From a virus (Duplodnaviria; Caudoviricetes), in IMG/VR virus record IMGVR_UViG_3300025000_000057: a DNA stretch of 64,000 nt; one strand, 5' to 3'. Below, piece after piece: positions 9,387 through 39,486 of the stretch. The position numbers were made by a program, and so were the translations under genes. The notes beneath the pieces were generated by a model. The model worked only from the letters and a program-made list of their open reading frames with translations, searched no databases and was not told where the DNA came from. How positions within the stretch are numbered: the first letter of the stretch is position 1; every line of letters starts with the position of its first letter.

Positions 9387-9416
9387 GTATAATGTAGCAT
9401 GTAATTGACAACAGTA
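9387..9416 (+). promoter_or_regulatory. SigF-type promoter candidate upstream of ssb
   Basis: GTATA, 15 nt (ATGTAGCATGTAATT), GACAACAGTA. Confidence 0.5.
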
Positions 9417-28956: not shown

Positions 28957-28983
28957 ATATGATATGGAATAGAGGTGAAACGT

Positions 28984-29469
28984 ATGTCGACACCACCAAC
29001 ACATTATGTAAGCCAAAGAGCGCTTGATGATATAATAACCTTTCTACAGCTCAATACATGGAATCGTAAGTGTACAATGAGCTTACAAGATATTGCAGAA
29101 CGTCTCAAGTATTCCGCCACTACTCTACATAGAGCTCTCAAGAAACTCCAAGCTGACGGAGTTATTGAGATACAAAAAAGTAGTAAAGCTGCAGAACCAA
29201 GTACAATTATCTACAACGGAGAGCTTATAGATACATCATTACTAACCAAAGGTAGTCGATTATGTAATGATGTAAAAGATAACAACGAATTAACCCAGGG
29301 ACTCGTCGATCATATAAATAACTGTCATAATACAATTAAACGTTTAAAGTTAGAGCTTGATCGATACAACGAGTTACGTAGTAGGGTTATGAGCGTAACT
29401 CCTGTTAGCGATACTCTAGAGAGTATAATACTTAGCAGACCTCATAAAGATTATAGAACTATACTTTAA
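28984..29469 (+). CDS. winged-HTH transcriptional regulator with C-terminal coiled coil
   Basis: MSLQDIAERLKYSATTLHRALKKLQADGVIEI. Confidence 0.75.
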   Translation: MSTPPTHYVSQRALDDIITFLQLNTWNRKCTMSLQDIAERLKYSATTLHRALKKLQADGVIEIQKSSKAAEPSTIIYNGELIDTSLLTKGSRLCNDVKDNNELTQGLVDHINNCHNTIKRLKLELDRYNELRSRVMSVTPVSDTLESIILSRPHKDYRTIL

Positions 29470-30522: not shown

Positions 30523-31140
30523 ATGTCTGAATGCGAATTCTATGGACGTTGTTTAAGCGGGGCTAAGAATTCGTGCTACAGGTGCATGAATAAAGATCTT
30601 TTAAGATTACCTGAAGATAAGGTACGTAACCAACGTCGTAAGAAAGCCGGACACTTTAATAACTCACAAATCGCCAGGAATAATCCATCCTGGCGTAATG
30701 CCGAAACTCAAGGTACATTAACTGTAAATGCTATGCCTAGCGCCGTAGAGATGGAGGCTAAGATTAACCCCGGTTCCGGAAATCAAACACATCGTCCAGG
30801 AGATTTTCTGGATGATGTGATATTTAATGAGACTAAAGAAAGAAAACCTATAATTACAGGTGGAGGAAAGTTATCTATAACAATAGAAAAAGGATGGCTT
30901 GATAAGGCTATTGCAGAGTGTAAGGGTAGGGGCAAGTTCCCGGTAGTTAACTTCAAACTTAAAGATACAGATGATTTGTACTCATTCTCTAAATTCGATA
31001 CCATTGCAGAGATGGTTCAGATGATTAAGTATCTAAAGAATGAACTGTTTAACTCCAGGGAGCAGTTAAAGATAACAATGCGAGAACTGCAAATCCTTCG
31101 CGATACTGTCAGTATGCAACATGAGAAGGAGAGCGATTAA
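30523..31140 (+). CDS. PD-(D/E)XK Holliday-junction-resolvase-like nuclease
   Basis: NPGSGN...PGDF..D...ETKE...SITIEKGWLDK...FPVVNF. Confidence 0.65.
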   Translation: MSECEFYGRCLSGAKNSCYRCMNKDLLRLPEDKVRNQRRKKAGHFNNSQIARNNPSWRNAETQGTLTVNAMPSAVEMEAKINPGSGNQTHRPGDFLDDVIFNETKERKPIITGGGKLSITIEKGWLDKAIAECKGRGKFPVVNFKLKDTDDLYSFSKFDTIAEMVQMIKYLKNELFNSREQLKITMRELQILRDTVSMQHEKESD

Positions 31141-34100
31141 TGTGTCAACACCTTATGTACGTAAACGTGATGGTGAAACACTAGCAGAATGGTATCCTGA
31201 GAAAATTCGTATGGCAATACAGAAAGCTTTTATTGCCAGTGAGATACCTTATGAAGATCAATGTCTTACGTTATTAATAAGTAAGGTAATTGAACAATTG
31301 CCGGATGAAAAGATCATTGATATAGAAACCATCCAGGACGTTGTTGAGCAGACTCTTTGCGTCGCAGGATACTGGAAAGTATCTAGAAGATATGCCGTAT
31401 ATAGAGAACGACGAGCTGCCCTACGCGAAGGTAAGGATGATCTAATGGATGTAATCCGGGATATCGACCGAGAAGCTACAAAGGATAATGCTAATGTAGG
31501 GCCCACTATGGCTGGTAAGGTACTTCAGATATCCGAAGCCGCATCTGGGTATTTTTACGGTAAGAGAGTAATACCTCGAGAGTTTAGTGAGGCACATGAT
31601 AATGGAGACATCCATATCCATGATAAAGCTTGGTATGGCAAAGGACTCAATTGCTGTCAAATACCTTATGAGAAACTAGCTGCTCATGGATTTAATACCG
31701 GCCATGGCTTTATCCGTCCAGCCCGTAGCTTAAAGACCGCTGCTATGCATGCGAGCATAATTATCCAGGCAAATCAGAATGAGATGTACGGCGGTCAAAG
31801 TTATCCGGATTTCGATAATCAGTTCGTCGCGACCGGAATAATGGAGCAACAACGGGAGAAGATACGTCGTGATTTACGGTATGGCGTAGAACTTACAGGT
31901 AAGAACTTTAACGAATTAGATCCGGAAGCCATTGATACTCAGGTAGAAAGAATACTCGATCATAAAGGATTCCAAGCTATGGAGGCTTTAATCTATAACC
32001 TTAACACGATGCATTGCTTGCCGTATAGTCAGGAGATTTGGATATACGATACTGTCGAAGAAGAACTCTTACAGATAGCTATTGGCAAATTGGCTGAAAT
32101 CTTTGAACCCAATCGGTATCAAACTATCAGTCTTAACCATGTGACTGGTAAGGCAGAGATGAAGTATATTACAAGTGTCAGTAAGAAAGATAATAACCGT
32201 AGACTTATTACTCTTATTGACAATGAAGGTAGGAAAAATACTACTACCGATAATCATGTTACTATGTGTATGGATGACTACGGTAATGTAACTGGCAGGT
32301 TCCCAGAAACATTGAATCATGTTTTATCTCCAAGAGGTATCGATCTCCCACCGGTTAGAGGCGATATCGGTTTAGATCATTATCATTCACGAAAAGTTCA
32401 AAACTACTTAGATGATCATATTGTAGTAACTATGGAGTTTGCCAAGATAGCTGGTTATTATGTGGCTGAAGGTAGTGTAGTAGGAGGATCTCAACTCTGC
32501 TTTACAGTATGTTCTACTAATAAAGAAGATGAGTTAATCTCTCTTATGCAGCAATGTTATGGAGAGAATATTACTTATAATCGTTATCCTACACCTATCG
32601 GTAAACCGAAGGATATACGGTTTAATGTAGGTAAGGTATGGGCCGATATGTTTAAAGACAAGTTCGGCTATGACGCTTATACTAAACATATTCCTGTAGA
32701 GATCTTGTTTGCAGAAGATGAAGTACTTATATCATTCCTTAATGGGTACTTCAAATGTGACGGTAGTATTAAAGAGAACTATATTATAGCTACCACTGTA
32801 AGTAAGAGATTACGCAATGAGTTAAATCTCATGCTTTTAAGGTTGCGTGAGCTTCCTCATATAGCCGAGAGAACTACCAGTTCGAATTACGGTACATCAC
32901 TCAATTATGAGATATCTATTAGTGGAATTGCGGAGAATAGATTAGGATTAGAGTTTGGTTGTAAGGTTATGTATGAACAAAAGCATTACGACTACGAATT
33001 TCTGAAATCTCTAATCAAAGAAAACAATAAGCTAATCCAGTATAAGAAGATTAAGCCCCATGAAATAGATATATATGCTATGACAGACAAACGACTCGGG
33101 GCCGCTACTAACGTATTCCCCGTTTCTATTAATCAATGTCTTGAGTCTAACAGTGGTGATGAATACGTCTACGATTTATCTGTAGAAGATAATGAAACAT
33201 TCTTGACAGCCGAGTGTATCTTCGTTCATAACAGCAGGGGAGGGGGGCAGATCCCTTTCTCTTCTATCAACATAGGTAATGTGCAAAGTCCCGATGCTGC
33301 TAAGATCTGTGAATGGTTCTTAAGAGCTTTTAAAGCCGGTTTAGGGAATGGCGAGCAACCGATATTTCCTAACGTTTGCTTTAAGATTAAGAGCGGCGTT
33401 AATATGCATAAGTCGGATCCGTACTATCACCTATTTCGTTTGGCACAGGAAGTTTCAGCTAAACGGCTCAATCCTAGTTGGGTATTCTGCGACAGTAGTT
33501 TTAATAAAGACGGAGATATCTCTTATATGGGTTGTCGTACCCGTGTAGTAGCCGACCGTCATGGAGAATCTACTACAATTGAGAGAGGAAACGTAGGGTT
33601 TACCACAGAGAATTTACCCAGACTAGCTATAAAGGCTATGTTAAAGCATCCTGATGATACAGATGCCAGGTTAAGTTACTTCTTTGAATTGCATAATGAA
33701 GTATTAAACCTTATAGTACGGCAGCTCATGCATCGTTTTGAATATATATGTACATTAAAGGCTAAAGACTTTCCTTTCCTAATTGGTCAAGACTTATACA
33801 GGGATGCTGACAAATTAAATCCAGAAGATAGTATCTATCTAGCTGCTAGGCATGGTACACTTACACTAGGCTTTATTGGTTTAGCTGAATGTTTGAAAGT
33901 ACTTGTAGGTAAGTATCATGCTGAAAGTACAAATGCACTGGCCCTGGGTCATAAAATTATATCTTATATTCGCAAGATAGCCGATGAAGCATGCGAGAAA
34001 TACGACCTTAACTTCTCTGTTATTGCTACTCCGGCAGAAGGTTTATCGGGTAGGTTTACCAAACTTGACCGTGAAGAGTTTGGGACAATTCCCGGAGCGA

Positions 34101-34507
34101 CTGATAAGAAATACTATACAAACAGTTATCATGTACCGGTTGATTATCCTATTAGCTATTATGATAAAATAGCAATAGAGGGGCCATTCCATAAATATTG
34201 CAATGGTGGCCACATGAGTTACATTGAATTCGAAAGTATGCCGCAACACAATATCGATGCTATTGAGAATATAGTATTACACATGGCCGCTTGCGATATG
34301 GGTTACGCTGCTGTTAATTATCCAGTAGATTTGTGCAAGTCCTGTGGTACTCATAATAATATAATACCACATGGAGAACCCTGTCCTGTATGTGGAGAAA
34401 GAGATAAGATAGATAGGATTCGCAGAATAACAGGGTACATTTCAACACTTGAGCGCTTCAATGACGCAAAAGTAGCGGAAGAGACAGATCGCATACCTCA
34501 TGTGTGA
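31121..34507 (+). CDS. nrdD: class III anaerobic ribonucleotide reductase with ATP cone and intein
   Basis: VRKRDG ATP cone, AHDNGDIHIHD, QNEMYGGQS, MGCRT, IATPAEGLS, YYTNS, RRITGYI; true start probably GTG 31142. Confidence 0.96.
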   Translation: MRRRAINVSTPYVRKRDGETLAEWYPEKIRMAIQKAFIASEIPYEDQCLTLLISKVIEQLPDEKIIDIETIQDVVEQTLCVAGYWKVSRRYAVYRERRAALREGKDDLMDVIRDIDREATKDNANVGPTMAGKVLQISEAASGYFYGKRVIPREFSEAHDNGDIHIHDKAWYGKGLNCCQIPYEKLAAHGFNTGHGFIRPARSLKTAAMHASIIIQANQNEMYGGQSYPDFDNQFVATGIMEQQREKIRRDLRYGVELTGKNFNELDPEAIDTQVERILDHKGFQAMEALIYNLNTMHCLPYSQEIWIYDTVEEELLQIAIGKLAEIFEPNRYQTISLNHVTGKAEMKYITSVSKKDNNRRLITLIDNEGRKNTTTDNHVTMCMDDYGNVTGRFPETLNHVLSPRGIDLPPVRGDIGLDHYHSRKVQNYLDDHIVVTMEFAKIAGYYVAEGSVVGGSQLCFTVCSTNKEDELISLMQQCYGENITYNRYPTPIGKPKDIRFNVGKVWADMFKDKFGYDAYTKHIPVEILFAEDEVLISFLNGYFKCDGSIKENYIIATTVSKRLRNELNLMLLRLRELPHIAERTTSSNYGTSLNYEISISGIAENRLGLEFGCKVMYEQKHYDYEFLKSLIKENNKLIQYKKIKPHEIDIYAMTDKRLGAATNVFPVSINQCLESNSGDEYVYDLSVEDNETFLTAECIFVHNSRGGGQIPFSSINIGNVQSPDAAKICEWFLRAFKAGLGNGEQPIFPNVCFKIKSGVNMHKSDPYYHLFRLAQEVSAKRLNPSWVFCDSSFNKDGDISYMGCRTRVVADRHGESTTIERGNVGFTTENLPRLAIKAMLKHPDDTDARLSYFFELHNEVLNLIVRQLMHRFEYICTLKAKDFPFLIGQDLYRDADKLNPEDSIYLAARHGTLTLGFIGLAECLKVLVGKYHAESTNALALGHKIISYIRKIADEACEKYDLNFSVIATPAEGLSGRFTKLDREEFGTIPGATDKKYYTNSYHVPVDYPISYYDKIAIEGPFHKYCNGGHMSYIEFESMPQHNIDAIENIVLHMAACDMGYAAVNYPVDLCKSCGTHNNIIPHGEPCPVCGERDKIDRIRRITGYISTLERFNDAKVAEETDRIPHV
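32015..33232 (+). mobile_element. intein with LAGLIDADG homing endonuclease (406 aa) in NrdD
   Basis: NLNTMH|CLPYSQEI ... VYDLSVEDNETFLTAECIFVHN|SRGGGQ; blocks FAKIAGYYVAEGS and FLNGYFKCDGSI. Confidence 0.93.
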
Positions 34508-34757
34508 AAATAATACATGCTCTAATCAGGACACCGTGCTAGACTCGAACGAGTATGAAGTACGTGTAATGGGTTTGGATAGGTGTTGTAAGAGTTGGAA
34601 GTTAAATCCCAAGAAGATATTAAAAGATAGTAAAGGTAGAATAGTACCTCAATATACTAATGCTATAATAGCAAATTGCGGTACTTGTCTTTATTACCCT
34701 ATCCTTACTACCGTGATGAACTTGAAGTATATAAGTGAAATGGGTATTGACATGTAG
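34500..34757 (+). CDS. hypothetical protein
   Basis: 85-aa ORF coupled to nrdD. Confidence 0.55.
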   Translation: MCENNTCSNQDTVLDSNEYEVRVMGLDRCCKSWKLNPKKILKDSKGRIVPQYTNAIIANCGTCLYYPILTTVMNLKYISEMGIDM

Positions 34758-35149: not shown

Positions 35150-35455
35150 ATGAGTTTTGCCAATCTTCTTAAAGAAGATATAATCGAATTTAAGACCCGA
35201 GTAAGGAATTCTTTTAGCAATAACCAATGCTCAGGTTATAGCGGGTTGTGCATAGTAGATGAAAACGGTAAAGAGCTTAAAAATAGCGTAGATTACATTA
35301 TAGATGGCGGTATTTTAACAGTAAAAGAGCATATCAATCCTATCGGTCTTATGATGCATGCTAGACTCGCACCTATGCCTCTTGAGAAACCTAGCTATGA
35401 AAAGTTTACATCTAACAATCCTGTAAAATGGTATAATAAACGACGCAGGAAGTGA
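35150..35455 (+). CDS. hypothetical protein
   Basis: ATG 35150 after GGTGA SD. Confidence 0.55.
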   Translation: MSFANLLKEDIIEFKTRVRNSFSNNQCSGYSGLCIVDENGKELKNSVDYIIDGGILTVKEHINPIGLMMHARLAPMPLEKPSYEKFTSNNPVKWYNKRRRK

Positions 35456-35706
35456 TTAGTATGAATGATACAAATAAAGTTCAGGACTTAAAGAGCATCC
35501 CTGACGTTGAAATCGAGAAAAGATTTAGCTATCATCCTCCTACGGAAGAGCAGCCTCAGAAGTATGAGGAGATTCGCGGTATGGGTAAGGCTTTCGCAGA
35601 ACTTATCAATGAATTATGTCCTGACAGCATGGATAAACGCGAAGCTATAAAGAAGATTGAAGAGGCTGTATTCTGGGCCAATGCTTCAATAGCTCGTTAT
35701 AGTTAA
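35452..35706 (+). CDS. Acb2/Tad1-hairpin-like protein (candidate immune-signal sponge)
   Basis: RFSYHPP..EQ..KYEEIR...AELINELCPDSMDKREAIKKIEEAVFWANASIAR. Confidence 0.55.
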   Translation: MISMNDTNKVQDLKSIPDVEIEKRFSYHPPTEEQPQKYEEIRGMGKAFAELINELCPDSMDKREAIKKIEEAVFWANASIARYS

Positions 35707-35710
35707 GGAA

Positions 35711-35717
35711 TGTCGAA
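35711..35717 (+). promoter_or_regulatory. Spo0A box candidate
   Basis: perfect TGTCGAA in the leader of the tRNA array. Confidence 0.35.
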
Positions 35718-35899
35718 GATGTTAATAGGTAGTGGGCTATACCGAAGGCTAAGGTATACACTGGGATATATTATACATGGCGTATAAGGTGTGGTATATC
35801 TCAATTCCAGAAGTCAACACTGTGTAATTCTACTGCAGGGGATTACTAAATCATGAGAGACTGCAATCTCTCATCTACCTATTAGCTTTTAATAATGGA

Positions 35900-35978
35900 T
35901 GTTGGCAGATGTCCAGTGCTCACAAACAATGTCCAGTGTGCCGGAGGGTGCAATCCAAGACTGGCACACTGGATGACA
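35900..35978 (+). ncRNA. tRNA-leader structured element family A, copy 1
   Basis: homologous to 36681-36760; covarying stems; ends 1 nt before tRNA-Asn. Confidence 0.65.
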
Positions 35979-35979
35979 C

Positions 35980-36054
35980 AGGGATATAGTTCAATGGTAG
36001 AACGGCGGACTGTTAATCCGTATGTTGCTGGTTCGAATCCAGCTTTCCCTGCCA
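35980..36054 (+). tRNA. tRNA-Asn(GTT)
   Basis: full cloverleaf, loop CT-GTT-AA, encoded CCA. Confidence 0.93.
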
Positions 36055-36173
36055 ATGTGGCAGCTGCAAGCGGCGCTGCTTCTTGTTCGGATAGATTCTC
36101 TAGTTTATTTATTAAAGTGGACTAGAGAATCTATCCTCAAGAAGTACACGTAGTCCACTAAATTGCAGCACAT
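36055..36173 (+). ncRNA. tRNA-leader structured element family B, copy 1
   Basis: GTGGCAGCTGCAARCGGCGC...[long hairpin]...GTACACGTAGTCCACTAAATTGCAGCA; fills the whole spacer between two tRNAs. Confidence 0.7.
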
Positions 36174-36251
36174 GTCGGTGTAGTCCAATTGGCAGAGACA
36201 TACGGTTTAAGCCCGTACCAGTGATGGGTTCAAGTCCCTCCACCGATACCA
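36174..36251 (+). tRNA. tRNA-Leu(TAA), short variable loop
   Basis: GTCGGTG/CACCGAT acceptor, TACGG-TTTAAGC-CCGTA, A73-CCA; irregular T stem. Confidence 0.7.
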
Positions 36252-36272
36252 ATAATATAAGGTGATGATATA

Positions 36273-36425
36273 ATGTCTAAGAAATCATGTTCAACTTGTT
36301 TGTATGGAAATTGCGATATAGAATTTTATGAATTAATTCCATGCATAGAATGTAATGAATTATTATTTTGGGAATTTAAAGACTTAAGTTTCTTAGATAT
36401 TGTAATACACTTTATAAATATGTAG
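36273..36425 (+). CDS. small Cys-rich protein (50 aa)
   Basis: MSKKSCSTCLYGNC...PCIEC; AAGGTGA SD; stop overlaps tRNA-Gln 5' end. Confidence 0.55.
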   Translation: MSKKSCSTCLYGNCDIEFYELIPCIECNELLFWEFKDLSFLDIVIHFINM

Positions 36426-36501
36426 GGGTGTAGCTAAGTTGGTCTAAGGCATACGGTTTTGATCCGTACATTCGTAGGTTCGAATCCTACTTCCCCTTCC
36501 A
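36424..36501 (+). tRNA. tRNA-Gln(TTG)
   Basis: TACGG-TTTTGAT-CCGTA, GTAGG-TTCGAAT-CCTAC, CCA. Confidence 0.88.
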
Positions 36502-36502
36502 T

Positions 36503-36577
36503 AACGACGCTGAGTAGAGGTAGCTTGTCAGGTTCATACCCTGAAGGTCGTGGGTTCGAATCCCTCCCCTGAAACCG
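36503..36577 (+). pseudogene. degenerate tRNA-Met(CAT)-like gene
   Basis: D, anticodon (TCAGG-TTCATAC-CCTGA) and T arms present; acceptor stem unpaired, no CCA. Confidence 0.6.
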
Positions 36578-36584
36578 TTATCAT

Positions 36585-36670
36585 GGAAGAGTGCCCGAGT
36601 GGTTAATGGGAGCAGACTGTAAATCTGCCGTGTAACAACTTCGTAGGTTCAAATCCTACCTCTTCCACCA
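36585..36670 (+). tRNA. tRNA-Tyr(GTA)
   Basis: GGAAGAG/CTCTTCC, GCAGA-CTGTAAA-TCTGC, long variable arm, CCA. Confidence 0.95.
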
Positions 36671-36680
36671 TAAGTATTAG

Positions 36681-36760
36681 AGTTGGCATATCTCTAGAGC
36701 TCACATACAATATTCAGTGTGCCCAATGGAACCCACTTAAGACTGGCACACTGAATGACT
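36681..36760 (+). ncRNA. tRNA-leader structured element family A, copy 2
   Basis: 35/42 identity with copy 1 over the 5' half; shared AAGACTGGCACACTG(G/A)ATGAC; abuts tRNA-Ser. Confidence 0.65.
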
Positions 36761-36845
36761 GGAAGGTTGACAGAGCGGTAATGTGCTTGATTGCTAATCA
36801 AAGGCCAGGGTAACACCTGCATAGGTTCAAATCCTATACCTTCCG
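36761..36845 (+). tRNA. tRNA-Ser(GCT), lacks encoded CCA
   Basis: GGAAGGT/ACCTTCC, loop TT-GCT-AA, long variable arm, G73 then CTC. Confidence 0.88.
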
Positions 36846-37308
36846 CTCTAAACTAATTGGTGGTGATTATTATTTCTAATAAATATAAAAAGATTAGAAT
36901 AAACAAAAATACCACCAATAACGAACATAGATTAGTTATGGAAGCAAAACTTGGTAGAGAGTTACTTAGTTCTGAAATTGTTCATCACAAAGATGAATGT
37001 AAAGGAAATAATGAACCTAGTAATTTAGAATTGACCACAAGAAAAGAACATAGTAGATTACATATGCTTGGTAAGAAATTACCCGAATCAACTAGAGAAA
37101 AGATGAGAAATAGACCTAGTATAAAGGGTTCTAATCATGTTAATGCAAAACTTAATGAAAAACAGGTTGTATATATTAGATGTTTACTTAGTAATGGCTA
37201 TGGTATTAGAGAATTAGGAAGATTATTTGAAATACATCACAGTGTAATATCTGATATAAAGAATCGTTTAATATGGAAACATGTATTATAAGGGCCTATA
37301 CCTTCCGC
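36833..37308 (+). mobile_element. HNH cassette flanked by 14-bp direct repeats of the tRNA-Ser 3' end
   Basis: CCTATACCTTCCGC at 36833-36846 and 37295-37308 (second followed by CA, restoring CCA). Confidence 0.75.
36857..37291 (+). CDS. HNH homing endonuclease (HNH_3-like + C-terminal HTH)
   Basis: EHRLVME..LGRELLSSEIVHHKDECKGNNEPSNLEL...EHSRLH; GSNHVNAKLNEKQV..IR; very AT-rich. Confidence 0.88.
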   Translation: MVVIIISNKYKKIRINKNTTNNEHRLVMEAKLGRELLSSEIVHHKDECKGNNEPSNLELTTRKEHSRLHMLGKKLPESTREKMRNRPSIKGSNHVNAKLNEKQVVYIRCLLSNGYGIRELGRLFEIHHSVISDIKNRLIWKHVL

Positions 37309-37323
37309 CATTTATGGAATCAT

Positions 37324-37367
37324 GGAGAGTCGCAATTTATAAGTCGATTCTCCCTCTGTCTCCGCCA
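37324..37367 (+). pseudogene. tRNA-Ser-like remnant/minihelix
   Basis: GGAGA.../TCTCC-G-CCA ends, no D or anticodon arm. Confidence 0.35.
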
Positions 37368-37450
37368 GTATTAAATTGTAGACGGTTGATATTTTAATGG
37401 CTTTAGCATACCGGAACAATTAACTAAGCGAATAAAAGCCATTGCATTAC

Positions 37451-37535
37451 GGAGGGTAGGCCAACGGTGGTAAGCTGTCTTGAAAACAGTCGAGGTGTAA
37501 AAGCCTAGCGGGTTCGACTCCTGTACCCTCCGCCA
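37451..37535 (+). tRNA. tRNA-Ser(TGA)
   Basis: GGAGGGT/ACCCTCC, GCTGT-CTTGAAA-ACAGT, long variable arm, G73-CCA. Confidence 0.9.
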
Positions 37536-37599
37536 GGGATAACTGCTGATCCCAACCACTTTATCATGTGCTCAAGGAGTTGCGACCCTTGGGCCTCCT

Positions 37600-37676
37600 C
37601 GGGATGTAGCTTAGTTTGGTAAGGCGCCTACTTTAGGAGCAGGTAACTGGGAGTTCAAATCTCTCCACCCAGACCA
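37600..37676 (+). tRNA. tRNA with Leu(TAG) anticodon on a tRNA-Pro-like body
   Basis: CGGGATG start and D arm like tRNA-Pro at 38921; loop TT-TAG-GA; short variable loop; two acceptor mismatches. Confidence 0.6.
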
Positions 37677-37693
37677 GAGGGCTTCACGCCCTG

Positions 37694-37824
37694 TAGTGGC
37701 AGCTGCAAACGGCGCGACTTTAACCAGTGATATAACTCCATAAGCTGATGTAATATATCTGCTAATATGGGTAAAGGATCTATCACGGATTAAGGTACAC
37801 GTAGTCCACTAAATTGCAGCATTA
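37694..37824 (+). ncRNA. tRNA-leader structured element family B, copy 2
   Basis: same conserved ends as copy 1, different central hairpin; ends 1 nt before tRNA-Met-like gene. Confidence 0.7.
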
Positions 37825-37825
37825 T

Positions 37826-37901
37826 CGCAGGTTGGAGCAATTGGAAGCTCGTCAGTTTCATAAACTGGAGGTTGCCGGTTCGAGTCCGGCACTCGCAACC
37901 A
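37826..37901 (+). tRNA. tRNA-Met(CAT), initiator-like
   Basis: C1:A72 mismatch, loop TT-CAT-AA, CCA; lacks the three G-C anticodon-stem pairs. Confidence 0.75.
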
Positions 37902-37913
37902 AACATTAAAGGA

Positions 37914-38216
37914 GTGATATTTATAGATACAAATAAATTTATATTTCATGTATGTACGTTTCCAGATGAACCAGATTTAATTGTAGTTACGATCAATACT
38001 AAAGAATGTTGGAATAATTATCATTATCTTACTGATAGTTATACCAAAGAAGAGTGGGATATACTTAATCCCATATTAGATGAACTTTCTTTAGTAAGTT
38101 TAGCGGATTCTTCTTTTGAATCTATGATTGATAGAGACATACCCACTCTTGTAAAATTACTTATTTCTAAAGGTTTAGAGCAAGATTCTGAGTTTAGTAA
38201 CTGGATGGAGATCTAA
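37914..38216 (+). CDS. hypothetical protein
   Basis: AAAGGAG SD; AT-rich ORF inside tRNA array. Confidence 0.55.
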   Translation: MIFIDTNKFIFHVCTFPDEPDLIVVTINTKECWNNYHYLTDSYTKEEWDILNPILDELSLVSLADSSFESMIDRDIPTLVKLLISKGLEQDSEFSNWMEI

Positions 38217-38247
38217 AGATGAGTAATAGGTTGTAACCGATCATCTT

Positions 38248-38328
38248 CCGGGTGTAGCCCAATTGGTAGAGACATACGGTTTAAGCCCGTACCAGTGATT
38301 TAGGGTTCGAATCTCTCCATCCCGACCA
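38248..38328 (+). tRNA. second, degenerate tRNA-Leu(TAA)-like copy
   Basis: 32-nt identity with 36174 copy around the anticodon; 3' end CATCCCG-A-CCA identical to tRNA-Pro; insertion before T arm. Confidence 0.5.
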
Positions 38329-38702
38329 AAAATTAATTTAGGTGATGATTTAATGAACTTTAAGGAGTGAATAATATATTCGCAAAAAGTCATTATAATT
38401 GTTCTAATAATAGTAGTGAATTAGATGGTGTATATGTATTTGTTATGTCTGGCATTGAAAAAGATATGCTCGAAGAGGCTATAGGAAATGTAAATTTCGT
38501 TCCTAAAGATGTTTAGATAGGATTTGTAATTTAAAATCTATCGGTAAAGCATTTAGAAGAATCAATAACCCGATAGAATGTAATATTTCATATACGAAAG
38601 CACTTTTACAATTATTATTACAGTTGGAAGGAATTAAAGATGACAATTAAAAGAAAATTAGTATTTGTTATAACAATGGAATTTGATATGAAACTTATTT
38701 AA

Positions 38703-38777
38703 GGGCCTTTAGCTCAATGGTAGAGCATCCGGCTCATAACCGGTTGGTTGGGAGTTCGAATCTCTTAGGGCCCACCA
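38703..38777 (+). tRNA. tRNA-Ile2/Met(CAT)
   Basis: GGGCCTT/AGGGCCC acceptor and CCGG-CTCATAA-CCGG arm typical of Firmicute Ile2. Confidence 0.85.
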
Positions 38778-38920
38778 GAGCCTTATTAATAAGGCAGGAT
38801 TGACTACACCTTGAAGTAGTTGGGTTTCGGGCTGTACCCGGCATCGATAAGTATGTCAAAACAGTACTAACTTAGTGCTTCGACACTTTGACCGGGTCTT
38901 CCTATCTCCCCGGTCATTGT

Positions 38921-38997
38921 CGGGATGTGGCCTAGCTTGGTAAGGCGCCTGTTTTGGGAACAGGAAATCGGGGGTTCAAATCCCTCCATCCCGACCA
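38921..38997 (+). tRNA. tRNA-Pro(TGG)
   Basis: CGGGATG/CATCCCG, CCTGT-TTTGGGA-ACAGG, CCA. Confidence 0.95.
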
Positions 38998-39013
38998 TAA
39001 TAATCTTTTATCC

Positions 39014-39046
39014 AAGACTGTAGTATTTTACTATAGTCTTTATTTT
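39014..39046 (+). terminator. terminator closing the tRNA array
   Basis: AAGACTGTAGTA-TTT-TACTATAGTCTT followed by TATTTT. Confidence 0.6.
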
Positions 39047-39063
39047 ATAAAGGAGGTGATACT

Positions 39064-39486
39064 ATGAAATGGGTACCAGGCCCTGTTATGCAAGACTGGC
39101 TATTTGCTCTAACATTAAAAGAGCAGACAGTTCTTTTACTAAGTCTAAGGGGGTCGGATATAGGAGCTACAGTAGAGGTTAAATCATTAACCAGGTGGAT
39201 ACGTTCTATCGTTTTAAGAAATGCGGCACCGGATAAGACATTCATGAAACGTACTTATTTTGGTAGGATAATAGATATGGCAGAGGCTAATCCTCCTGCA
39301 TTTGATATGTTATCTGTACACGTATTCGGTCATCTGATGCATGCATTTGAAATAATAGGGTACAAGCACCCGGATACCGTCGTCCGGGCAAAGGCATTAC
39401 AAGCATATTTAGATCTTTGCGAGTACATGCATGTTAATCCGGAAACCGAAGTAGAGATGTCCGCTAGACTAAGTGACGAGGTGTAA
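39064..39486 (+). CDS. hypothetical protein
   Basis: AGGAGG SD; 140 aa. Confidence 0.7.
   Translation: MKWVPGPVMQDWLFALTLKEQTVLLLSLRGSDIGATVEVKSLTRWIRSIVLRNAAPDKTFMKRTYFGRIIDMAEANPPAFDMLSVHVFGHLMHAFEIIGYKHPDTVVRAKALQAYLDLCEYMHVNPETEVEMSARLSDEV

Follow-up and report, generated by a model that had tools for sequence, protein, structure and literature searches.

A two-copy element that joins a promoter-like sequence to a hairpin at tRNA 5' ends in the tRNA array of a groundwater phage

Two copies of an 80-nt element abut tRNA genes

We analyzed a 64,000-nucleotide (nt) stretch of DNA, referred to here as the window, from a phage of the class Caudoviricetes (Duplodnaviria; IMG/VR virus record IMGVR_UViG_3300025000_000057). 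It contains a tRNA array (35980-38997) made up of 11 tRNA genes called by ARAGORN plus one partial tRNA-like match, all of them on the + strand. The subject of this work is an 80-nt element, hereafter family A, that is present twice in the window, once at the head of the array and once inside it, each time next to the 5' end of a tRNA gene. The bit scores given for the two copies come from a covariance model (R1) that was built from these same two sequences. The features on which the argument rests are the following.

35900-35979, + strand: family A copy 1, directly 5' of tRNA-Asn at the head of the tRNA array (alignment and pattern uniqueness; R1, 101 bits)
35902-35930, + strand: promoter-like site of copy 1, -35 TTGGCA (35902-35907), 17-bp spacer, -10 AACAAT (35925-35930), matching 9/12 positions
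35930-35975, + strand: hairpin of copy 1, 13-bp stem (35930-35942 with 35963-35975) and 20-nt loop, whose 3' six bases, AAGACT, are conserved
35980-36054, + strand: tRNA-Asn(GUU), the gene that copy 1 would serve (ARAGORN; Rfam, 73.7 bits)
36681-36760, + strand: family A copy 2, abutting tRNA-Ser(GCU) and beginning 10 nt after tRNA-Tyr (R1, 105 bits)
36683-36711, + strand: promoter-like site of copy 2, -35 TTGGCA (36683-36688), 17-bp spacer, -10 TACAAT (36706-36711), matching 10/12 positions
36711-36757, + strand: hairpin of copy 2, 13-bp stem (36711-36723 with 36745-36757) and 21-nt loop ending in AAGACT
36761-36846, + strand: tRNA-Ser(GCU), the gene that copy 2 would serve (ARAGORN; Rfam, 55.3 bits)
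39014-39050, + strand: intrinsic-terminator-like hairpin and T run after tRNA-Pro, which closes the array and would mark the end of the transcription unit

Over 80 alignment columns, the two copies are 88% identical (84% when the flanks are included), and a degenerate 30-mer taken from the 5' half had exactly 2 sites in the 64 kb, where shuffled sequences gave an expectation of 0.00. A first-pass annotation, made from the sequence alone, had described two related copies reaching the 5' ends of tRNA-Asn and tRNA-Ser; both statements held, and the boundaries that it drew stop 1 and 0 nt before the respective +1 positions. Because ARAGORN and Rfam both place the start of tRNA-Asn at 35980 and that of tRNA-Ser(GCU) at 36761, the conserved ATGAC at the end of the element lies 2 nt and 1 nt before tRNA +1.

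Conservation is uneven along the element. The first 15 columns of the loop have diverged to chance level (10/15 differ), while AAGACT in the loop, the core of the stem, and the ATGAC tail are unchanged. The 5' half, which had been described as a single-stranded segment better conserved than the loop, does surpass the loop, but it is less conserved than the rest: the copies differ at 8/34 of its positions versus 2/31 in the stem core and 3' part (one-sided p of ca. 0.06). Both copies were identical in DNA contigs from two independent studies, and therefore there was no population variation to exploit. Four substitutions in the spacer between the promoter-like hexamers (alignment columns 9, 12, 15, and 18; 35908-35917 and 36689-36698) lie exactly 3 nt apart, a periodicity that is probably a coincidence. 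A coding reading was discarded: in one frame of the - strand, these four differences would be synonymous or conservative, but that frame contains a TGA codon and there is no room for an open reading frame (ORF) between the tRNA genes.

Two copies in just one genome might also derive from a neutral or nearly neutral 80-nt spacer that was duplicated recently, by recombination at tRNA flanks or by homing-endonuclease repair, and whose loop was replaced later. The HNH endonuclease gene and the tRNA-end duplications described below show that the array is recombinationally active, and the heterogeneity of substitutions along the element is marginal (p of 0.06 to 0.09). However, a loop diverged to chance level beside an identical stem core fits selection, or a precise swap of the apex, better than drift, and both substitutions in the stem keep pairing. 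We consider a neutral origin unlikely.

The 5' half matches a bacterial promoter

In both copies, the 5' half holds hexamers close to TTGACA and TATAAT, the sigma70/sigmaA consensus, separated by 17 bp, the optimum within the accepted range of 16 to 18 bp. The -35 hexamer is the same in the two copies, and the critical A2 and T6 of the -10 hexamer are retained in each. Only 39 sites scoring at least 10/12 exist on both strands of the window, so the chance of meeting such a match among the ca. 52 start positions available in family A is ca. 0.016. The substitutions in the 5' half fall mostly outside the hexamers (1/12 hexamer positions versus 7/22 others), although the difference is not significant. 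This match was missed by the first-pass annotation, and it offers a more ordinary account of the segment that had been singled out as a conserved single strand.

Judging from other sites in the window, the phage clearly uses promoters of this type: there are perfect 12/12 sites at 9405 and 28928 and an 11/12 site with a TG extension at 34747, each of them located 15 to 30 nt before a Shine-Dalgarno sequence and an ATG. The position of copy 1 is equally sensible, at the head of an array that ends in a terminator-like hairpin, and its site is the best promoter-like sequence between the stop codon of the upstream acb2-like gene (35706) and the first tRNA. The predicted transcription starts (ca. 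35936-35938 in copy 1 and ca. 36717-36719 in copy 2) fall inside the 5' arm of the hairpin. Transcripts starting 5 to 7 nt past the -10 hexamer would begin with a hairpin, with no unpaired 5' bases (-18.2 and -12.6 kcal/mol), and would be laid out as a stem of at least 8 bp, then 6 to 8 unpaired nt, and then the tRNA.

The DNA itself shows that the element is repeated, that the hexamers match at the spacing given above, that a hairpin is encoded, and where each copy lies. The explanation of them that we favor, tentatively and as somewhat short of an even chance, is that family A represents a cassette, present in two copies and specific to this phage, that combines a host-type promoter with a leader hairpin. 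In this scheme, the 5' half would act as a sigma70/sigmaA promoter (TTGGCA, 17 bp, and TACAAT or AACAAT), and the 3' half would encode a stable stem-loop stretching from the predicted start to a point 3 to 5 nt short of the tRNA. The array as a whole would be transcribed from copy 1, with reinforcement by copy 2 for tRNA-Ser(GCU) and the genes after it. The leader of the primary transcript would be ca. 43 nt long, its 5' end locked in the hairpin and presumably protected by it, until RNase P cut at tRNA +1 and the leader was discarded. Transcripts reading through from upstream would form the full 13-bp hairpin. If this is correct, a huge phage splits a 3-kb tRNA array into separately driven units by means of a reusable cassette, something useful for annotation rather than surprising. 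No evidence for an RNA family, from either Rfam or covariation, competes with the promoter reading.

Several observations weigh against a promoter. The matches, at 9/12 and 10/12, are below consensus; copy 1 has an A at the first position of the -10 hexamer, and neither copy has a TG extension. In this AT-rich region, promoter-like matches as a whole occur at the frequency found in shuffled sequence (20 found versus 18.1 expected). A promoter does not explain the invariant GCTCACA of the spacer, the AAGACT of the loop, or the ATGAC tail, nor does it account for why the half that bears the hexamers is less conserved than the stem and 3' tail. Finally, one compensatory pair (columns 34/74) falls upstream of the predicted start and therefore needs read-through RNA, whose full hairpin would explain this change.

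The same geometry could serve a site acting as DNA, either an operator on which a phage regulator binds over the promoter start or a hairpin and T-rich tract terminating antisense transcripts from the - strand. The element does contain 11- to 12-bp inverted repeats whose centers, counted from the arm coordinates, are 31 to 32 bp apart (three helical turns), so that the half-sites would lie on one face of the helix. These half-sites are invariant rather than covarying, and the phage has a gene for a winged-helix regulator (28975-29469) under a perfect promoter. As a dimer site, however, the repeat is asymmetric, with AAGACT conserved on one side only, its spacer differs in length by 1 bp between copies, and only on the + strand do G.U pairs lengthen the stem. 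The scan of the - strand flagged a terminator-like site at 35945-35932, but such matches were at background (4 found versus 3.0 expected) and no - strand gene runs into the array. A role at the DNA level appears improbable.

Two other sets of signals were tried and set aside. A boxA/nut-like antitermination site, prompted by GCUCACAAACAA beside the hairpin, is not distinctive, since 46 sites in the window match a boxA consensus at the same stringency. For a sigma54 promoter, an H/ACA or C/D box, a cloverleaf, or a hammerhead core, either the spacing or the core did not fit on inspection.

Leader hairpins in the tRNA array

The hairpins of both copies are stable for this DNA. The minimum free energy of the 50 nt upstream of the tRNA was -27.5 kcal/mol for copy 1 (lowest 0.1% of the window background) and -18.8 kcal/mol for copy 2 (lowest 0.5%). 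Fold z-scores were modest on the + strand (-2.9 and -1.9) and weaker on the - strand (-0.8 and -1.25). All of the proposed pairs (16/16) form in both copies, whereas sliding the partners lowered pairing to 25 to 40%. The compensatory changes reported in the first-pass annotation are real: within the long stem, a C-G pair became U-A with both sides changed (columns 34/74) and a G.U pair became A-U with one side changed (columns 32/76), and in the 3-bp terminal helix, the terminal U-A pair became A-U with both sides changed (columns 1/80). The 13-bp stem and the terminal pairs do form, but covariation was not significant with two sequences, for which the shuffle control was uninformative (130/500 shuffles reached the observed values), and RNAalifold favored a small 5' hairpin, itself without covariation, over the terminal helix, with which it competes.

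Stable leaders are not confined to family A. When a leader was counted as stable if it belonged to the lowest 5% of 50-nt folding energies across the window, unusually stable hairpins ending 0 to 5 nt before +1 were found at 4/12 of the tRNA or tRNA-like genes of the array (binomial p of 0.002). Unrelated stable hairpins of their own, ending at this same distance from +1, precede tRNA-Leu(UAG) (37550-37599), the second tRNA-Leu(UAA) (38200-38247), and tRNA-Pro (38870-38920), and hairpins in the leader seem to be a general rule in how this array is built. Another repeated spacer, family B, fills the gaps between tRNA-Asn and tRNA-Leu (36055-36173) and between tRNA-Leu(UAG) and tRNA-Met (37677-37825). 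Its ends are invariant (GTGGCAGCTGCAA at the start and GTACACGTAGTCCACTAAATTGCAGCA at the end), the internal hairpin is wholly different between its copies, and it has the opening TGGCAG in common with family A copy 1. Since stable leader hairpins are overrepresented and family B is built alike, with an exchangeable apex in a conserved frame, the hairpin of family A is likely, on the predicted folds, to have an RNA-level role in the pre-tRNA leader, with or without a promoter in the 5' half.

These observations bear on a purely RNA-level alternative, in which the whole 80 nt would be transcribed within one long pre-tRNA as a cis-acting element consisting of a long hairpin and the conserved 27-nt segment 5' of it. 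Such an element could guide or insulate cuts by RNase P or RNase E, prevent misfolding between tRNAs, or cap the 3' end of the upstream fragment; otherwise, it could be freed by tRNA punctuation as a small stable RNA. The complete pairing in both copies with two double compensatory changes and a single one, the better folding of the + strand, the concentration of conservation in the stem and 3' tail, the four leaders with stable hairpins, and the neighboring family B all agree with it, as does the apical loop, swapped above a stem base that was kept, as happens in many functional RNAs. On the other hand, covariation was not significant with two sequences, and the 27-nt segment has no supported pairing: it found no complementary target in the window, and its pairing with its own tRNA was no better than that of shuffles. 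No homologue appeared in the collections searched either (see below). We rank it as the main alternative, although rather less than probable. Were it true, this array, with its strong leader hairpins at four tRNAs and its two repeated spacer families, would add to the indications that leaders of this kind, structured and abutting tRNA +1, recur undescribed in groundwater phages and bacteria, and they would have a bearing on pre-tRNA maturation.

Another fold was seen in front of the array. The 193-nt spacer from the acb2-like gene to family A copy 1 (35707-35899) has a predicted multibranched structure (z-score of -3.0) with a closing 12-bp helix (ca. 35721-35732 with 35877-35888); CTTTTAATAAT comes immediately after this helix. 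The fold could represent a further structured RNA or a terminator of unusual form preceding the array.

No wider RNA family was detected

The first-pass annotation had recognized no riboswitch or ribozyme core, and the comparison with Rfam agrees: only tRNAs were matched at the gathering score, and likewise over 35600-39100 at E≤10 with permissive filters. Along the same lines, the models of known ribozymes (hammerhead, twister, twister-sister, pistol, hatchet, hairpin, hepatitis delta virus [HDV]-like, glmS, and VS) gave no match even at E≤10.

Homologues were looked for with exact patterns, with 11-mers, or with the covariance model on selected sequence, so that distant ones could have been missed. 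In IMG/VR, scans with a 15-mer and with a gapped 19-base pattern gave only chance matches, lacking both the hairpin and the tRNA context, and the same was true of the 71 matches to a 17-base pattern in metagenome contigs and of the 7 matches to an 18-base pattern in genome contigs, where each prokaryotic species was represented by one genome. With blastn (word size of 11), neither copy found anything in 50,697 phage records. Within the window, R1 detected no third copy above noise, the next + strand match after the two copies reaching 14 bits. It also found none in 40 kb further upstream in the same phage, the transfer-messenger RNA (tmRNA) island included (ca. 92 kb of the phage covered altogether), none in 151 genomes belonging to the same class as a Desulfotomaculum genome (the group in which the host is likely to lie), and none in 5 of the largest IMG/VR records with Acb2 relatives. 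A search for RNA-seq runs containing the phage returned none.

Neighboring genes were no better guides. Acb2 relatives are scattered, and the homologues of a flanking 140-amino-acid (aa) ORF do not exceed 56% identity and lie away from any tRNA array. A query with the C-terminal part of NrdD found no relative in IMG/VR, and the best NrdD relative (75%) belongs to an unrelated 85-kb phage with no tRNA or family A-like site in 32 kb. The search with an ORF inside the array retrieved only a 99.67% identical strain fragment that does not include the family A region. Of the three findings that the first-pass annotation had named together as counting against a novel RNA element (the third being the lack of a discrete RNA), two came out that way within the reach of the tools: there was no additional tRNA-linked homologue in any collection searched and no statistically meaningful covariation from two copies. 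Independent homologues and covariation above background, the marks of a conserved structured RNA family, were both missing from what was searched. By sequence comparison, nothing supports a wider RNA family, and family A is real, uncatalogued, and confined, with its two copies, to one phage.

A further idea is that family A is a self-cleaving ribozyme, or a hairpin cleaved under protein guidance, that makes the tRNA 5' end independently of RNase P. In its favor, the element abuts tRNA +1, and phage tRNAs are known to carry flanking theta ribozymes (PMC10879173). However, besides the negative Rfam results, neither a pseudoknot nor a conserved junction core was seen on inspection, and there is no family from which a catalytic core could be inferred. 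Known small ribozymes would be expected to leave a 5'-OH on the tRNA, and most known classes cleave at or near their own 5' end and not at the 3' end. We consider this mechanism most improbable, and a private promoter cassette likelier than a new ribozyme, because the conserved half looks like a common type of bacterial promoter and no similar element turned up elsewhere in what was searched. Among the roles suggested in the first-pass annotation, a cis-acting leader element that affects tRNA processing keeps its plausibility, given the strong hairpin, whereas a ribozyme is unlikely. A broader version, in which family A (possibly joined by family B and the remaining leader hairpins of the array) represents a new tRNA 5'-leader RNA that defines or protects the tRNA 5' end without ordinary RNase P recognition, through self-cleavage at its own 3' end or a hairpin-specific nuclease, seems to us distinctly doubtful.

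Comparison with described systems

By analogy of layout, the nearest described system is the composite promoter and stem-loop cassette of T4-like phages known as PeSL (promoter-early stem-loop). PeSLs are repeated intergenic sequences that contain a sigma70-type promoter (N17) and a stem-loop and whose copies are alike enough to recombine; in them, a stem-loop serving as terminator comes immediately before the promoter, a Shine-Dalgarno sequence and start codon form the end of the cassette, and many copies flank ORFan genes (PMC4122927, PMC2839356). Family A likewise joins a sigma70-type promoter match with a stem-loop in one repeated intergenic motif of a large phage. Unlike in PeSL, its stem-loop is downstream of the -10 hexamer, the cassette ends at tRNA +1, and there are two copies.

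Theta ribozymes are minimal HDV-like ribozymes with a double pseudoknot that lie 3' of phage tRNAs and cleave within 5 nt of the tRNA 3' end (PMC10879173). The resemblance is that family A is also a small structured element immediately beside tRNA genes of Caudoviricetes, and theta ribozymes have been proposed to act in tRNA end maturation. Family A, however, sits 5' of its tRNA and matches no HDV-type model. In theta ribozymes, G1 of P1 is at most 5 nt from a tRNA 3' end, whereas copy 1 has no tRNA upstream and copy 2 begins 10 nt after tRNA-Tyr.

Leaders with a 5'-terminal stem-loop, such as the 5' untranslated region of Escherichia coli ompA and the Bacillus subtilis aprE leader, stabilize mRNAs. 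The predicted family A transcripts would also start with a hairpin and no unpaired 5' nucleotides, but, unlike those mRNA leaders, theirs would be cut off by RNase P, and any stabilizing benefit would therefore be transient. The tRNA cluster of T4 produces two stable RNAs (species 1 and 2, rnaC/rnaD), structured non-tRNA molecules of ca. 120 to 140 nt, single-copy, that are released by the tRNA-processing machinery. Family A is similarly a non-tRNA structured element inside a phage tRNA cluster; in contrast, it is shorter and has two copies and an unrelated sequence.

The phage, its putative host, and the rest of the array

The window is part of a phage genome of ca. 219.5 kb from Rifle-type groundwater and sediment metagenomes, and DNA identical to it was found on NCBI, ENA, and Logan contigs. 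The phage encodes a DnaE-type polymerase, a UvsX-like recombinase, virion proteins, an intein-bearing NrdD, and an Acb2/Tad1-like protein; no close relatives were found in INPHARED or IMG/VR. Since the closest cellular relatives of its NrdD are from Desulfotomaculia and Peptococcaceae, the host is probably within the Bacillota. A tRNA-Ser ca. 91% identical to that of the phage (over 36766-36836) was seen in a far more abundant organism from the same groundwater samples (contig depth of 115 to 297, versus ca. 25 for the phage); the sequence 5' of that gene is unrelated to the phage's. This organism may be a clue to the host.

Inside the array, a partial tRNA match (36512-36566; Rfam, 36.4 bits over model positions 10 to 63) that ARAGORN did not call lies between tRNA-Gln and tRNA-Tyr (36502-36584), and what it marks is a tRNA-like element of atypical or truncated form. 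The array also contains a Cys-rich ORF of 50 aa (36273-36425) that has a CxxC...CxxC pattern and whose stop codon overlaps the first bases of tRNA-Gln. The gene for the HNH endonuclease (36857-37291; Pfam HNH_3) is inserted at the 3' end of tRNA-Ser(GCU) (36833-37310), where the last 14 nt of the tRNA, CCTATACCTTCCGC, are duplicated (at 36833 and 37295). Only the distal CCTATACCTTCCGC copy runs on into CCA, so the tRNA-Ser(GCU) gene is now without an encoded CCA. A break in one ENA assembly of the phage coincides exactly with this repeat. Within the D-arm region of tRNA-Pro, 22 nt of the window (38926-38947) are missing from the NCBI contig (GCA_902725955.1), which is otherwise identical over 10.4 kb; the probable cause is that the assembly collapsed tRNA-Leu(UAG) and tRNA-Pro, genes that are 82% similar.

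Outside the array, the phage encodes a tmRNA (Rfam RF00023, 59 bits; L190 3580-4161) ca. 22 to 23 kb before the window begins; the stretch around it is poor in ORFs, and ARAGORN calls no tRNA there. The intein in the NrdD gene (31121-34507) contains a LAGLIDADG domain. The final gene upstream of the array (35452-35706) encodes a protein with an Acb2/Tad1-hairpin domain, a candidate sponge for cyclic-nucleotide defense signals.

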